Part shown: positions 43,606 to 64,000 of the stretch, in pieces | Layout: every line of letters starts with the position of its first letter | How positions within the stretch are numbered: position 1 is the stretch's first letter | Assembly (NCBI GenBank): GCA_033648345.1 | Contig: GCA_033648345.1_4121.1 | Direction: 5' to 3' (one strand) | DNA: 64,000 nucleotides | Source of the DNA: a phage | Made by a program: the position numbers and the translations under genes | The notes under the pieces: generated by a model | The model's database searches: none | Seen by the model: only the letters and a program-made list of their open reading frames with translations | Told to the model about the DNA's origin: nothing

Positions 43606-43640
43606 AAGGGTTGACTTCGGTCAGCCCTTTTTGTTATAAT
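43606..43640 (+). promoter_or_regulatory. PeSL cassette upstream of denV
   Basis: gggttgac-TTCG-gtcagccc then tataat. Confidence 0.7.
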
Positions 43641-43668
43641 CATTTCATCGAAACGAGAGGATGAATAC

Positions 43669-44145
43669 ATGACACGCATTAACTTAGTACACGTTAAAGA
43701 ACTTGCTGACCAACATCTGATGGCTGAATATCGTGAACTCCCACGTGTATTTGGTGCTGTACAAAAACACGTTCAAGCACGTAAGCGTGTACGTGATTTC
43801 AAAATTAACAGTACTTACCTGTTAGGTTCAGGTCATGTAACATTCTTCTACAACAAGTTATTGTACTTACAGAAGCGTCATATTGAAATTGTTAACGAAT
43901 GTTTGCGTCGTGGTATGAAGATTCAAAACATTGAATTAAACGACATTAGCGGCTTCCCTGCTGAGTTTTGTAATGACTACGTACCATCGGAGTCAGAGAT
44001 TAAAATGTCTCGTGAGCGTTTGATTGAGAAGCTACAGATGAAGCCTACGTGGTATAAGTTTACTGATGTTGAATGTCCACAGTACGTTAAAGATATGTTG
44101 AATGAAATTGAAGAACAAATCAAAGATGAAATGAATAACTATTAA
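43669..44145 (+). CDS. denV: DenV-type pyrimidine-dimer DNA glycosylase (T4 endonuclease V family)
   Basis: MTRINL...[21 protein letters not shown]...KRVRDFKI...GHVTFFY...RPTWYK closely matches the T4 endonuclease V sequence as I recall it. Confidence 0.93.
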
Positions 44146-44150
44146 AGGAA

Positions 44151-44185
44151 AAGGTTGACTTCGGTCAGCCATTTTTGTTATTATA
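44151..44185 (+). promoter_or_regulatory. PeSL cassette (weak -10)
   Basis: ggttgac-TTCG-gtcagcc. Confidence 0.6.
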
Positions 44186-44214
44186 GCTCTATCGAAACGA
44201 ATGAGGATTAAGTA

Positions 44215-44472
44215 ATGATTAAATTAAAATTTGAAGGTATGCGTGATGGGAATGGTAACCTAATCATTACACGAGGTACTAAAGCAGTACGATGCTTAGA
44301 AGAACATGGTATTGAATTTACTATTCCATACGATGATATCAGGATTAAAGAGGATACGGTACTGGAATTGCCACTCACTACATTTGAAGAATTGAATGCA
44401 TTTTGTCAAACATATAATGCACTAATCACTTTCGATGAACGTAATTGTGTTATTGAATTTTTACAACACTGA
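44215..44472 (+). CDS. hypothetical protein
   Basis: ORF in track after GAGGA. Confidence 0.45.
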   Translation: MIKLKFEGMRDGNGNLIITRGTKAVRCLEEHGIEFTIPYDDIRIKEDTVLELPLTTFEELNAFCQTYNALITFDERNCVIEFLQH

Positions 44473-60795: not shown

Positions 60796-60804
60796 GATTT
60801 TCTC

Positions 60805-61998
60805 CTATGATTGCCATAACTGCGTTGGCATTAATGTTAATGTTTTAATTAAGTAAGTACCATCCGGTAATTTACTACCTGAACCGTTAAAGCCCCCACA
60901 TGCATATAATTTATAATCTTTAGTTATAATTATTGTTCTGGACCAGTCTTTGGATGCCATAAGAACATTGTCATATCCACCCTGTATCGCACTTAAAGAA
61001 AACGCCCCCCACGAAGTAATTATTGTTGTATTTCCCGTCCCTTCTTGACCATATGTATTGATGCCTGCACTCCTGACATATGATGGGTATTGAGCCATAG
61101 GTGCACCAATTGTTGAGTTACCCATATTACTAGGACACAGGAAACCATCACTAATATTCACTATAACCTGTGAATTCTGAACTGTAGTTAATTGGTTTGT
61201 AGTTGAAGTAGTACCATTCCCAGCTTGTCCAGAATTGTTTCTACCACTCCAGTACACCCTACCGGCAGTAAACCACCAGGTAACATCATAAGTAGTACTT
61301 ATATAATCGACGTTGGTTCGTATTAATTTATTAGTAAAAACGTATGAGCTAGTCCCACCACCACTTTCACCAAAGTTATCCTTACCACAAAACCATGCTT
61401 CTTTATTTGTTTTGAGATAGTGCGTACCCTGTAATGAACACGCCAATTGAGAAACTTCACCCATACCAGTAACAACTGTTAGTACTGGAATGGGATTTTG
61501 GTTACCTGTTCCACATTCGGCATTTGCATTTTTACCACAAACAACGACTCTTCCATCGTGTAGTAATATTCTAGTACTTTCACCTATATGTACACTCTTG
61601 ATTAAATTAGCGTGTACATTTATTTTGTTAAATGCGGCAGTAACATCAGTCCATGTTCTAAAATAACCATTAACTGGAGTTGCATCTCCATAATCGGGGA
61701 ATGCTACTGTATTCCCTGTGAAATATATTCTATTATCCAAGTCAATCATCAATGATCCATGAACGCCTAACCAAAAGGCTGCACAGTGCGTTGCCAGTAC
61801 TGTAAAAGTTGAAACTGCCGATCGATTCCCTAGACCTAATTGGCTCAAGTTATTACCACCATAACCGTATAGTGTATTCGTGGGCTTATGTAGATACATA
61901 GCATTAGTATAATGTTGCTGTAAAACATCAGTGAACTCAACTGGATCAGGAATAGGCAGTTTATTCCCGTACTTAACCATTCTAGCAAAAGGTAACAT
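60805..61998 (-). CDS. RCC1-like repeat protein, array member 11 (close paralog of member 8)
   Basis: MLPFARMVKYGN; long stretches identical to member 8. Confidence 0.75.
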   Translation of the reverse strand: MLPFARMVKYGNKLPIPDPVEFTDVLQQHYTNAMYLHKPTNTLYGYGGNNLSQLGLGNRSAVSTFTVLATHCAAFWLGVHGSLMIDLDNRIYFTGNTVAFPDYGDATPVNGYFRTWTDVTAAFNKINVHANLIKSVHIGESTRILLHDGRVVVCGKNANAECGTGNQNPIPVLTVVTGMGEVSQLACSLQGTHYLKTNKEAWFCGKDNFGESGGGTSSYVFTNKLIRTNVDYISTTYDVTWWFTAGRVYWSGRNNSGQAGNGTTSTTNQLTTVQNSQVIVNISDGFLCPSNMGNSTIGAPMAQYPSYVRSAGINTYGQEGTGNTTIITSWGAFSLSAIQGGYDNVLMASKDWSRTIIITKDYKLYACGGFNGSGSKLPDGTYLIKTLTLMPTQLWQS

Positions 61999-62061
61999 AA
62001 TTCCCTCCTTTATTCATTATACTATATTTAATCAAAAAGAAAAGCCAGTACTCATTTAATT
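61999..62061 (-). promoter_or_regulatory. array cassette (half hairpin)
   Basis: tataat and aggagg conserved. Confidence 0.5.
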
Positions 62062-63207
62062 TTAACGAGGTATAACTATTTTTTTGAATAATCCAGTATT
62101 TCCTGCATTTTCTTCTTCATATGGAATTGTACCCATACCAGCAGTTCTGCCACCATTCCCTGAACCATACAGTTCTCCATTCTTAATCATGAATGTTATC
62201 ATATAACCATGTGTCATTTTATCATATGGAACTGGTTCAGTTATATTATTACATGCTCGCCATGTACTAATAACACTAGAGTTCGTTATACCATCACCTG
62301 ATGCGTTTCCTCGACCAGCGAAATACCATATCCCACCTGCTCTAACGTGTGCTTCATAATTAGAACCACCTATGTAATCAATCGCAGTACTAGGAATACT
62401 AGAAGCTGGTATCTTTGTGATTGTTCTAAGACTGTTAATAGTGCCATTAGTGCCATCACCCAACTGTCCATATATTTGTGAACCGAATACATATAGCCCA
62501 TCACTCTTTAATACGTAATTAGCACTATATGCATTTTCTGAATTTATCTGTAATACTCCAGTAGTAACAGTAGTCAATGTGGTAGTTGTACCAGTCGAAC
62601 CAATACTAGATTTTTTCCCACTGTACTTTAATGTTCCATCATTGTATAATACAAATGAAGCATTATCAGCGGTTACACCAATATCTTTAACATCAACTTC
62701 TGGTGTCAATGTCAGTACTGATACTCTTTGGTCAACAGCCCCAGTAAAAACTTCACCGTTGTTATTGTAACCCATCTTATATAATTTATTATCTATTGTT
62801 AATAATAATGTAACGCCGTTTCCTATAACTATTTTACTATATGTGTCATTCACATCATCAAAAATACCAAGTATTTCTGTCCATACACGATAAGTAGTAT
62901 TAACACCACGATAGATTTGAGCACCAGTACTCCACCATGTGCCATCATTTTTACGTACTAATATTCCGTGTGTATCACCAGTAGTCCAAAATTCCTTTAC
63001 ATCAGTTAAACATAAAACCCACTCTTCAACTATAGTAGGAGAACTACTACCAGTACCTAATTGATAGTAAAAATTATGCCCTCTGCCATATAATCTTCCG
63101 TCTTCTAATAAAATAAACACATTATTCTGTAAAACTTTTACCATCTTTATACCAACTGGCACAGGTGCTTCATTCCCACAATCGAACATTCTAACAAAAG
63201 GTAACAT
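62062..63207 (-). CDS. RCC1-like repeat protein, array member 12
   Basis: start at internal MLPFVRMFDCGN (63207); YGRGHNFYYQLGTGSS / FGSQIYGQLGDGTNGT. Confidence 0.75.
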   Translation of the reverse strand: MLPFVRMFDCGNEAPVPVGIKMVKVLQNNVFILLEDGRLYGRGHNFYYQLGTGSSSPTIVEEWVLCLTDVKEFWTTGDTHGILVRKNDGTWWSTGAQIYRGVNTTYRVWTEILGIFDDVNDTYSKIVIGNGVTLLLTIDNKLYKMGYNNNGEVFTGAVDQRVSVLTLTPEVDVKDIGVTADNASFVLYNDGTLKYSGKKSSIGSTGTTTTLTTVTTGVLQINSENAYSANYVLKSDGLYVFGSQIYGQLGDGTNGTINSLRTITKIPASSIPSTAIDYIGGSNYEAHVRAGGIWYFAGRGNASGDGITNSSVISTWRACNNITEPVPYDKMTHGYMITFMIKNGELYGSGNGGRTAGMGTIPYEEENAGNTGLFKKIVIPR

Positions 63208-63277
63208 ATTCCCTCCTTTATTCATTATACTATATTTAATCAAAAATAAAAGCCAGTACAGAGTACTGGCATAGTAT
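63208..63277 (-). promoter_or_regulatory. array cassette
   Basis: gccagtacagagtactggc hairpin plus tataat and aggagg. Confidence 0.6.
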
Positions 63278-64000
63278 TCAAAAAGGTAAATCAATTTGCT
63301 TAGTAATAATAGTATCTAACGGTATTGAACACAATGAGAAATTCTTTCCACCCGTATTTTTAGGATTATATCCATTCATCCATACATTATTACCTTCGTA
63401 AAATGTATTCCAGTATAAAGACCCACTATATCGTGTATTCGAATTGAACGATGTAAAATTGAATTCTTGAAATGCTGTAAAATATGGAAGGGAACTTGAA
63501 CTACTTCCCGTAAATGGGGTATGCCCAGTTGCTATTAGTTTGTTTGTATCTGCATTAATTAAAAATACAACACTAGTCGAATAGTCCAACGAATCAGGAT
63601 GATATATATTACTCATATCACCTATAGTAAAACCAACATCAAAAACTTTAATATGTGCACCACTACCAGCAAAAGTAGTTCCAGTTGCATATATTTTATT
63701 ATCAGATGTTATCATTACAAAACCAACACCAGAAACAAAACAGCATTTTATATCATAAGATATATCATCAAACAACGGAACAAATGTGGTTGCATCACCC
63801 GATGTTGCTTTAACTTGAAAGCTGTTATTTGAACCTGAACCATATACAGTTCCATCGTTTTTAATCTTAAACACTGTATCACCAAGGTAACCGCCAAATA
63901 TATTATCCACATTAGTGTCAAGTACAGTCCACGCTGAAACATAATTTTTATGTCCTAAACCTAATGCACCACTTCGATTCCATCCTCTTCCATAAAGTGT
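63278..64000 (-). CDS. RCC1-like repeat protein, array member 13 (5' end beyond window)
   Basis: reading frame stays open upstream of the track start to the window edge (...YGRGWNRSGALGLG...). Confidence 0.6.
   Translation of the reverse strand, partial: TLYGRGWNRSGALGLGHKNYVSAWTVLDTNVDNIFGGYLGDTVFKIKNDGTVYGSGSNNSFQVKATSGDATTFVPLFDDISYDIKCCFVSGVGFVMITSDNKIYATGTTFAGSGAHIKVFDVGFTIGDMSNIYHPDSLDYSTSVVFLINADTNKLIATGHTPFTGSSSSSLPYFTAFQEFNFTSFNSNTRYSGSLYWNTFYEGNNVWMNGYNPKNTGGKNFSLCSIPLDTIITKQIDLPF

Follow-up and report, generated by a model that had tools for sequence, protein, structure and literature searches.

What makes one part of a phage genome differ from relative to relative, and what is being exchanged there? 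These questions are raised by a stretch of phage DNA of 64,000 nucleotides (nt) (NCBI GenBank assembly GCA_033648345.1, contig GCA_033648345.1_4121.1), called the window below. In its right-hand part, from 43606 on, denV, the gene for a pyrimidine-dimer DNA glycosylase, is followed on the plus strand by a run of small membrane-protein genes, and beyond these, on the minus strand from 47869 to the window end, by an array of at least 13 genes for RCC1-like proteins. Twelve of the array proteins start with MLPF and the gene of the 13th is still open at base 64000, the array being cut by the end of the window. An earlier note, made from the window's letters alone, had taken this neighbourhood for a hyperplastic locus holding two expanded families at the place where T4 has internal-protein genes. 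In the explanation favoured here, the unique sequence of an Asteriusvirus-type jumbo coliphage is plastic in its right-hand part, to which the region corresponds, and this part is served by two kinds of cassette system, one around denV and one in the array; to this explanation as a whole, including the roles suggested below for the leader peptide and the propeller bodies of the array proteins, we give a probability of about 0.6.

The phage and its relatives

Nearly all of the 57 phage records that match 43000-50000 in a Megablast search are Asteriusvirus jumbo coliphages, with CMSTMSU, EC.P1, WPEC3 and Ecwhy_1 as the best matches at ~97% identity and the PBECO4 group at ~84%. By these matches the source of the window is an Asteriusvirus-type jumbo coliphage (Rak2-like; the 121Q/PBECO4/phAPEC6 group) and not a T4-like phage. 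The homologous region was compared in eight relatives (WPEC3, CMSTMSU, EC.P1, fEgEco12, ph0011, UB, phAPEC6 and SD-2_S15), to which every window protein was mapped. The closest database genome, that of CMSTMSU (MH494197), is error-ridden and flagged UNVERIFIED_ORG; its RCC1-like genes are broken into 31 RCC-like pieces, many of its early genes are likewise fragmented, and alone it is unsuitable for judging synteny. The genome ends of fEgEco12 have been determined experimentally and its arrangement confirmed by restriction digests, and there the same locus lies ~5 kb left of the right 21-kb terminal repeat.

The RCC1-like array and its variation

The array genes in the window, numbered from the convergent end, are the following.

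47869-48993, minus strand: R1, with the variant leader MLPFVLLFDYGN; Pfam RCC1 match at E 3.7e-13; found in the closest relatives only
49754-50890, minus strand: R2, RCC1-like
50961-52310, minus strand: R3, 449 residues; phrog_4219 match at E 1.3e-15; directly after R4, without a cassette
52321-53500, minus strand: R4, in two pieces, R4a (52706-53500) and R4b (52321-52587), owing to a +1 frameshift
53580-54755, minus strand: R5, with orthologs in UB and phAPEC6 only (86-88%) and none in the closest relatives
54827-56006, minus strand: R6, frameshifted near its 5' end into a leader fragment (55827-56006) and a body (54827-55903)
56077-57186, minus strand: R7, the most widely shared type
57195-58397, minus strand: R8, 72% identical to R11
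58408-59538, minus strand: R9, RCC1-like
59614-60795, minus strand: R10, RCC1-like, the one modelled
60805-61998, minus strand: R11, RCC1-like
62062-63207, minus strand: R12, elsewhere in the array in WPEC3, EC.P1 and fEgEco12
63278-64000, minus strand: R13, its 5' part past the window end; among the eight relatives the type is found only in CMSTMSU (94%)

How variable is this array? When the 87 intact leader-bearing RCC1-like genes of the window and seven relatives were clustered at 70% identity or more, they fell into 28 types, none of which is present in all eight genomes. The number of copies runs from 5 in ph0011 to 17 in WPEC3, and the order differs: R12, which follows R11 in the window, precedes R6/R7 in the three relatives listed with it above. 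Even the R7 type, present in seven of the eight clustered genomes (the window included), is absent from ph0011; R3 occurs in WPEC3, EC.P1 and ph0011, R11 in fEgEco12 and CMSTMSU, and R1 in the close group only. Not one of 37 records covers 80% or more of the array at 50000-64000 in one place, the best reaching 52% and most being scattered over 5-11 places, while for the control stretch 26000-40000 eleven records do so and the ten closest cover 89-100% of it at 96-99% identity in 1-2 places. On these comparisons the array is strongly hyperplastic. The paper on fEgEco12 had already remarked on two RCC1-like genes that differ strongly between near-identical phages.

The diversity is one of bodies that keep a common fold. 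Within the window the gene bodies are 20-33% identical to one another, R8 and R11 being the sole recent duplicate pair. Pfam RCC1, RCC1_2 or RLD was matched by 10 of the 11 RCC1-like proteins tested (R3 gave none); PF00415 or PF13540 scored above the gathering threshold in R1, R5, R6, R8, R9, R10 and R12, and the whole-domain family PF25390 matched 10 of the 11, all under its 150-bit cut-off. An AlphaFold model of R10 (pLDDT 85.4, pTM 0.86) has as its top Foldseek matches in the PDB the structures of UVR8, the RPGR RCC1-like domain (RLD), RCC1 and the HERC2 RLDs (E 1e-19 to 1e-15, TM 0.6-0.7), and R10 is predicted to be an RCC1-type, presumably seven-bladed, beta-propeller. RCC1 repeat signatures and a predicted propeller are what the phage array has in common with RCC1, UVR8, RPGR and the HERC RLDs (PF00415, PF13540, PF25390); unlike the solved members, to which they are 13-17% identical, the phage proteins are single-domain and carry a family-specific leader of 12 residues. 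There are no grounds for expecting Ran guanine-nucleotide exchange or chromatin functions in them.

Two of the window genes are broken in frame. The junction in R4, near 52706-52730, is a +1 frameshift just 5' of a canonical GQLGNG repeat, with rare CGG and AGG codons before the stop; the split recurs in WPEC3, and in UB and phAPEC6 (~83% nt identity), with both halves open (264-274 residues and 133-137 codons). The phAPEC6 ortholog of R4a, gp007, a 30-kDa N-terminal half, has been detected in virions (PMC7247149). Either programmed +1 frameshifting or a stably truncated propeller could account for the split. In R6 the shift lies ~45 codons past the leader and leaves a 59-residue leader fragment and a 358-residue body; the R6 bodies of WPEC3 and EC.P1, likewise without leader, are 100% identical and do not count as independent observations.

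The joints

The spaces between the array genes are copies of one composite element. Read along the minus strand, it has the stop codon, the hairpin (G)CCAGTAC-N3-8-GTACTGG(C), TTTTCTTTTT, the box TTAAATATAGTATAATGAATAAAGGAGG, a few bases and then ATG TTA CCT TTT G..; a terminator hairpin with its T-run thus precedes a box of the TATAAT type and a ribosome-binding site, and the element runs on for the first ~36 nt of the gene that follows. The hairpin core occurs in 6 exact copies in the window (0 expected), in the array only, and the 28-nt box in 5 (0 expected). In the locus of every relative, too, the hairpin core is confined to the array, and no copy was found in the relatives' early region, structural region or terminal repeat, nor in T4 or GAP32. 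The cassettes at the joints are these.

50891-50954, minus strand: 5' of R2; hairpin 50936-50954, T-run, 28-nt box TTAAATATAGTATAATGAATAAAGGAGG at 50896-50923
53501-53579, minus strand: 5' of R4; degenerate hairpin, AAATATAGTATAA box at 53519-53531
54756-54822, minus strand: 5' of R5; hairpin variant 54798-54822, 28-nt box 54760-54787
56007-56070, minus strand: 5' of R6; 28-nt box 56012-56039, hairpin 56052-56070
59539-59611, minus strand: 5' of R9; variant cassette, hairpin 59582-59611
61999-62061, minus strand: 5' of R11; 28-nt box 62004-62031, half a hairpin
63208-63269, minus strand: 5' of R12; 28-nt box 63212-63239, hairpin 63253-63269

At R4-R3, R9-R8-R7 and R11-R10 the genes abut without a cassette and are joined by the ~36-nt leader-coding sequence alone, and because of such abutting genes the array looks like eight small transcription units.

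Where do the stretches shared with relatives begin and end? All 39 ends of blocks of at least 85% identity between the window and its relatives lie within -49 to +90 nt of an RCC start codon, a zone that makes up 13.6% of the span, and neighbouring homology blocks overlap by exactly the joint. Since exchange in the joints predicts that all block ends fall there, their positions argue for homologous recombination in the joints, which would exchange, duplicate, delete and reorder whole gene bodies. The joints are located to single-nucleotide precision, and what is exchanged would be an entire gene that brings along its terminator, promoter, ribosome-binding site and leader. Unexplained families of paralogs abound in jumbo phages, and the joints of this one give a concrete, testable mechanism.

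The leader

The leader, MLPF[AVG]RM[VF][KD]YGN, is formed by the first 12 residues, coded by the ~36 nt that belong to the joint. Averaged over pairs of paralogs, identity is 78% for the leader and 20% for what follows it, and outside the leader region no window of 12 columns exceeds 37%. Within Asteriusvirus the synonymous sites of the leader are constant too: the proline is CCT in 87 of 87 genes, as against 33% in the gene bodies, and the glycine GGG in 67 of 83, as against 12%. Such fixation of synonymous sites, beyond what codon bias would give, points to concerted evolution or to a role at the nucleotide level. Is the peptide itself also kept? GAP32 gp1, encoded by a single-copy gene in another genus, starts MLPFSRIIQYGN with CCA and AGG as its proline and arginine codons, and homologs in phages of the SE_PL type start MIPFARIMLYGN. 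Because the single-copy GAP32 gene retains the peptide with different codons at these two residues, the leader is, by this comparison, under selection at the protein level.

In the R10 model residues 1-20 have a pLDDT of ~50 and lie outside the propeller. An RCC profile search of 1.84 billion representatives returned 112,474 hits, swamped by giant generic RCC1-repeat proteins; among the top 150 only a phage protein, P0004, aligns from position 1, and the leader is, as far as these alignments tell, not a part of generic RCC1 domains. A degenerate-leader scan of IMG/VR found one contig (348,532 bp) on which all 7 hits are RCC-like, and no leader on other protein families. Along the arrays of the window and of the relatives (L001-L008) two co-varying leader subtypes, MLPFARMVKYGN and MLPFVRMFDYGN (A..VK versus V..FD), are intermixed together with a Gly5 variant.

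What might the leader and the propellers do?

By mass spectrometry of purified virions, 8 of the 11 RCC1-like proteins of phAPEC6 (gp003, 005, 006, 007, 009, 010, 549 and 551) were found in the particle (PMC7247149, Table 1), and GAP32 gp1 likewise (PMC5259590); phAPEC6 gp006 and gp007 are the orthologs of R5 and R4a. Since the leader is selected as a peptide and lies outside the modelled propeller, and homologs of the array proteins are in the virions of phAPEC6 and GAP32, we infer that it may be a common signal for virion incorporation or docking, by analogy with the T4 capsid-targeting sequence, and that the variable propellers would be interchangeable binding modules facing host diversity. 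A bolder version, possible and put forward only tentatively, would have the leader MLPFxRMxxYGN as a portable virion-packaging signal of Rak2-like jumbo phages and the array as a recombining library of packaged, possibly injected beta-propeller binders, selected by host defence systems or surface structures; through the terminator-promoter-leader joint any new body could be plugged in, its expression and its address to the particle being provided in advance.

Several things weigh against the favoured explanation. The peptide counts in phAPEC6 are low, 1-5 per protein, and co-purification is possible; the data on virions are bulk data obtained with relatives and not with the phage of the window, and they fit a place inside the head as well as one on the hairy fibres. 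Supplementary mass-spectrometry files for JP4 do not mention RCC or condensation proteins and provide no independent replication. CBB, a related hairy phage, is without RCC1 homologs, so these proteins are not essential to the particle plan. The late-type motif TATAAATA, found upstream of the capsid, scaffold and baseplate genes of phAPEC6, is not in the box of the array cassettes, which, being a different one, gives no sign of the late expression expected of virion proteins. Recombination in the joints is read from the positions of block boundaries, whose 39 ends are not independent, given the shared ancestry of the relatives. The conservation of synonymous sites could reflect a constraint on RNA or DNA and not peptide function alone. 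The L/I-x-E site at which the prohead protease removes leaders of the T4 type is not conserved behind this one, which has no glutamate of its own, and an x-x-E motif occurs within 25 residues in only 5 of the 12 window copies; with no consistent site of this kind the leader is not obviously a cleavable targeting sequence of the T4 type.

Could the proteins instead be external adhesins, tips or decorations of the hair-like fibres of head and tail, with the leader docking them to a fibre or anchor protein and the array as a host-range repertoire? Phage receptor-binding proteins usually have a conserved N-terminus and a variable body, with exchange at the boundary, and a conserved N-terminus followed by a variable body is the architecture met here. 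Beta-propellers often serve as scaffolds for ligand binding, the repertoire turns over quickly between near-identical phages, the proteins are virion-associated and the head and tail hairy fibres of phAPEC6 have no proteins assigned to them. Yet CBB is whiskered all the same without an RCC1 homolog, 12 residues would be very little for an anchor domain, fibre and trimerisation domains are lacking and no surface localisation is on record for RCC proteins, so that an adhesin role seems to us rather unlikely. In another reading, which the phAPEC6 authors proposed (‘DNA condensation proteins’), they would be parts of the capsid inner body that organise DNA, their diversity being then the neutral drift of redundant structural paralogs. 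The inner body of phAPEC6, 91 x 18 nm, is itself without assigned proteins, eight RCC1-like proteins are in the virion, and eukaryotic RCC1, which binds nucleosomes, is among the fold matches (3mvd); however, the fold resembles those of UVR8 and RPGR just as closely, and neither of these binds chromatin, and an essential structure is unlikely to tolerate 5 copies in one phage and 17 in another. A DNA-condensation role fits poorly because copies range from 0 (CBB) and 1 (GAP32) to 17 with no universal member, and we consider it improbable. The database name, ‘regulator of chromosome condensation / DNA condensation protein’, comes from fold homology only, which is a caution for annotation.

Might the plasticity, finally, be an artefact that arose when a repetitive region was assembled or annotated, or the leader purely a feature of DNA or RNA, such as a recombination or translation-initiation signal? 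The fragmented genes of CMSTMSU invite the former thought, repeats of ~100 nt could in principle mislead short-read assemblers, and the fixed synonymous codons invite the latter. The array bodies are too divergent, however, to be confused in assembly, the sub-blocks R7-R8-R9-R10 and x5-x6-x3 recur in independently sequenced genomes, and the genome arrangement of fEgEco12 was borne out by restriction digests; on the first two grounds assembly artefact was rejected. Against a leader of nucleic-acid function only stand the different codons of GAP32 gp1 and the start of the SE_PL-type homologs. We think either form of this explanation very improbable.

To return to the leader as a packaging or docking signal: if that were true, it could be used to put foreign proteins into phages with large capsids, in the manner of the T4 targeting sequence. 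The RCC1-like repertoire is the most variable part of otherwise ~97%-identical phages that are candidates for therapy, and would make an obvious candidate determinant of host range or defence evasion.

The denV side

A second kind of cassette system is found around denV, where the features are as follows.

43605-43640, plus strand: PeSL-like terminator/promoter element 5' of denV; stem-loop AAAGGGTTGACTTCGGTCAGCCCTTT holding the -35 box TTGACT, then a T-run and TATAAT
43669-44145, plus strand: denV, pyrimidine-dimer DNA glycosylase; Pfam PF03013 (Pyr_excise) at E 2.7e-15; 62% identity to T4 denV
44153-44184, plus strand: second PeSL-like element; GGTTGACTTCGGTCAGCC, a T-run, then TATTAT
44215-44472, plus strand: o85, a cassette open reading frame (ORF) of 85 residues without counterpart in any of the eight relatives
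44495-44524, plus strand: sigma-70-type promoter upstream of the ATPase gene, a perfect match (12/12) to TTGACA-18 nt-TATAAT
44553-45326, plus strand: P-loop ATPase-like protein of 257 residues, NrdC.10 homolog; phrog_1250 at E 4e-100, Pfam AAA_16 below cut-off

denV is a single-gene cassette with a PeSL-like element on either side. The element is a composite of a terminator stem-loop and a sigma-70 promoter that overlap each other: the stem GGGTTGACTTCGGTCAGCCC is followed by a T-run and then by TATAAT. The window has 8 copies, all on the plus strand between 24112 and 44167, where ~1 would be expected, and all 8 are intergenic and immediately upstream of plus-strand ORFs, two of them bracketing denV. 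Over the consensus AAAGGGTTGACTTCGGTCAGCCCTTTTTGYTATAAT, which has the -35 box inside the stem and TATAAT as the -10 box, the stems fold at -12 to -18 kcal/mol (z -3.8 to -6.3), the element at 43605-43640 at -17.6 kcal/mol (z -6.3).

In each of the 8 genomes compared, the window and seven relatives, the variable cassettes on the denV side have these elements as their borders. Blocks of homology stop at 43602-43609 and 44165-44218, at the two elements that flank denV, and the insert between the conserved genes upstream and the ATPase gene differs in almost every relative. EC.P1 and fEgEco12 have the minimal order element-denV-element-ATPase; the window adds o85, after which homology with WPEC3 picks up again at 44489, WPEC3 adds an endonuclease of 516 residues, in UB and phAPEC6 three or four other ORFs are present in addition, and ph0011 has four genes, one of them for a methyltransferase, upstream of denV. 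What the alignments show is that on the denV side relatives differ by whole cassettes between PeSL-like elements, as in modular shuffling of the PeSL type.

PeSL (promoter-early stem-loop) cassettes are known from T4-type phages and their hyperplastic regions (Arbiol et al. 2010, PMC2839356; Comeau et al. 2014, PMC4122927). The likeness lies in a repeated intergenic stem-loop terminator with a strong sigma-70-type promoter in an early, non-essential region, in the position of the elements just where an insertion, deletion or replacement among close relatives begins or ends, and in the predicted transcriptional insulation of every cassette; the T4-type definition further includes mini-circles excised by recombination between elements. 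The differences are that the carrier here is a Rak2-like jumbo phage, that the stem GGGTTGACTTCGGTCAGCCC itself holds the -35 box, and that the RCC1-like array has a second joint, without a -35 box, that reaches ~36 nt into coding sequence. PeSL-type shuffling, this suggests, is apparently not confined to T4-like phages.

Six more copies with the TTGACTTCGGTCA core, at 24112, 32237, 35831, 36487, 38566 and 39248, stand on the plus strand before small plus-strand ORFs, and cassettes of this sort may structure the early region throughout. The only tblastn matches of o85, at 33-36% identity, are in Klebsiella RaK2-like phages, and among the Asteriusvirus records examined it is found in this phage only; it has no match in Pfam, PHROG or NCBIfam, and an NCBIfam scan of seven window proteins gave no hits. 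The 257-residue P-loop protein is ~41% identical to T4-type NrdC.10, a family present in more than 1300 phage records; among the relatives there are two allele types (98-99% versus 59% identity) that do not track overall relatedness. In the ORF 5' of denV, 43161-43601, homology with the relatives stops at ~43450, the last ~50 residues (CxxC...CxxC) being specific to this phage, and an HNH endonuclease gene present upstream of denV in most relatives is absent from the window.

The membrane-protein genes and the convergent terminator

Between the denV cassettes and the array lie the membrane-protein genes, and around the meeting point of the two strands the following were found.

45394-47833, plus strand: M1-M7, seven abutting small membrane ORFs of 104-123 residues each (M1 45394-45732, M2 45732-46079, M3 46076-46414, M4 46414-46728, M5 46725-47096, M6 47098-47460, M7 47462-47833)
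47838-47864, both strands: bidirectional intrinsic-terminator-like hairpin between M7 (plus) and R1 (minus); perfect 12-bp stem, core CCAGTAC..GTACTGG
49071-49721, plus strand: o216, an ORF inside the array between R1 and R2; phrog_34359
49729-49747, both strands: second bidirectional hairpin, between o216 (plus) and R2 (minus); GCCAGTAC-ATA-GTACTGGC

Are M1-M7 a family? Six of the seven have three hydrophobic segments (M3 has one at the threshold used) and all seven a basic C-terminal tail rich in lysine and arginine. In hhalign comparisons M1 and M2 match with a probability of 63% (E 9e-6), M5-M6, M5-M7, M2-M3 and M4-M5 at E 1e-3 to 6e-3, and the remaining pairs not significantly; the four that were scanned (M1, M3, M5 and M7) fell into four different PHROGs. 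Paralogy across the seven has weak support from these alignments and from BLAST and convinces for M1 and M2 only. M1-M7 keep the same order in all eight relatives, ph0011 having one extra, and by that comparison they and the NrdC.10-like ATPase form a stable neighbouring module outside the plasticity.

The folding energy of the hairpin at 47838-47864 is -15.6 kcal/mol on one strand and -15.1 on the other (z -5.3 and -5.7, respectively, against shuffled controls), with a clear T-run on the minus strand (UUUUUAUUAU) and a weaker one on the plus (UUAAUUUUAAUU). A homolog of o216 (44-46%) stands directly after M7 in the PBECO4 group. Its AlphaFold model (pLDDT 67) has no significant Foldseek match in the PDB, and a homolog search likewise gave nothing significant.

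How does the locus first supposed compare with the one described here? The membrane genes do begin, on the plus strand, within the 1.3 kb of denV that the earlier note allowed, M1 starting 1249 nt after it. Of the single bidirectional terminator at which the two arrays were said to meet, the hairpin itself is borne out, but the arrangement is not purely convergent, o216 with its own hairpin intervening on the plus strand. The expansion of two unrelated families holds for the RCC1-like array and, for the membrane proteins, is convincing for M1/M2 only. Hyperplasticity, likewise, describes the array and the denV cassettes, which vary among relatives, but not the fixed order of M1-M7. Between conserved flanks the relatives do carry different cargo, as had been anticipated, and not the same gene content throughout.

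Comparison with T4

In T4, as the earlier note said, ipII and ipIII adjoin denV. Does the window hold its array at the equivalent position? A tblastn comparison of window ORFs of at least 50 residues (36-64 kb) with T4 58000-72000 at E<0.01 gave denV as the only true match; of two other hits one is an antisense-frame match to denV itself and the other a marginal match of 43 residues at E 0.009. Of the window ORFs from 36-64 kb, denV is thus the only one with a counterpart in those 14 kb of T4 that surround its denV, and positional equivalence was rejected, denV alone being common to the T4 denV neighbourhood. The NrdC.10-like ATPase is the only other T4-type gene here, and its name belongs to the nrdC cluster and not to the neighbourhood of denV.

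The comparison with T4 survives as a functional analogy only, one that may hold between two sets of diverse virion proteins with a short conserved N-terminal leader. The leader of the T4 internal proteins is MKTYQEFIAE. The T-even internal proteins IPI, IPII and IPIII, with their capsid-targeting sequence, come from polymorphic ip loci (Repoila et al. 1994, as reported in PMC3012670). Like the array proteins of the relatives, they are a set carried in the virion, highly diverse between related phages and encoded by clustered genes. Unlike theirs, the RCC leader is without sequence similarity to the T4 leader and is followed by no conserved protease cleavage motif, and the bodies behind it are all homologous beta-propellers of ~40 kDa, not small unrelated proteins. 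The T4 internal proteins, moreover, are inside the head and are ejected into the host, whereas the RCC1-like proteins are known from bulk virion mass spectrometry of relatives.

Earlier descriptions and neighbouring features

RCC1-like ‘DNA condensation protein’ genes have been annotated in 121Q, PBECO4, phAPEC6 and GAP32 (PMC7247149, PMC5259590, PMC13070987), and they are of the same family and at the same genomic position as the window array. Their multi-copy nature (eleven in phAPEC6) and virion association were already published; the published accounts examined give counts and annotation, and do not describe the joints, the leader, the shuffled pan-repertoire or the PeSL-like elements. Cassette shuffling by way of conserved regulatory joints is a known principle, which here extends into coding sequence. 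The significance would be greater if the leader proved to be a portable packaging signal.

The window also has, on its plus strand, genes for tRNA-Ser (GCT) at 9338-9427 and tRNA-Thr (TGT) at 11777-11850. Past the distal end of the array, which lies outside the window, relatives have at least 10 plus-strand ORFs of ~60-70 residues each on the way to the ~21-kb terminal repeat (41827-43815 in the compared region of fEgEco12, L004; 46455-48214 in that of WPEC3, L001; 35261-38738 in L006), and this run may be a third tandem family.

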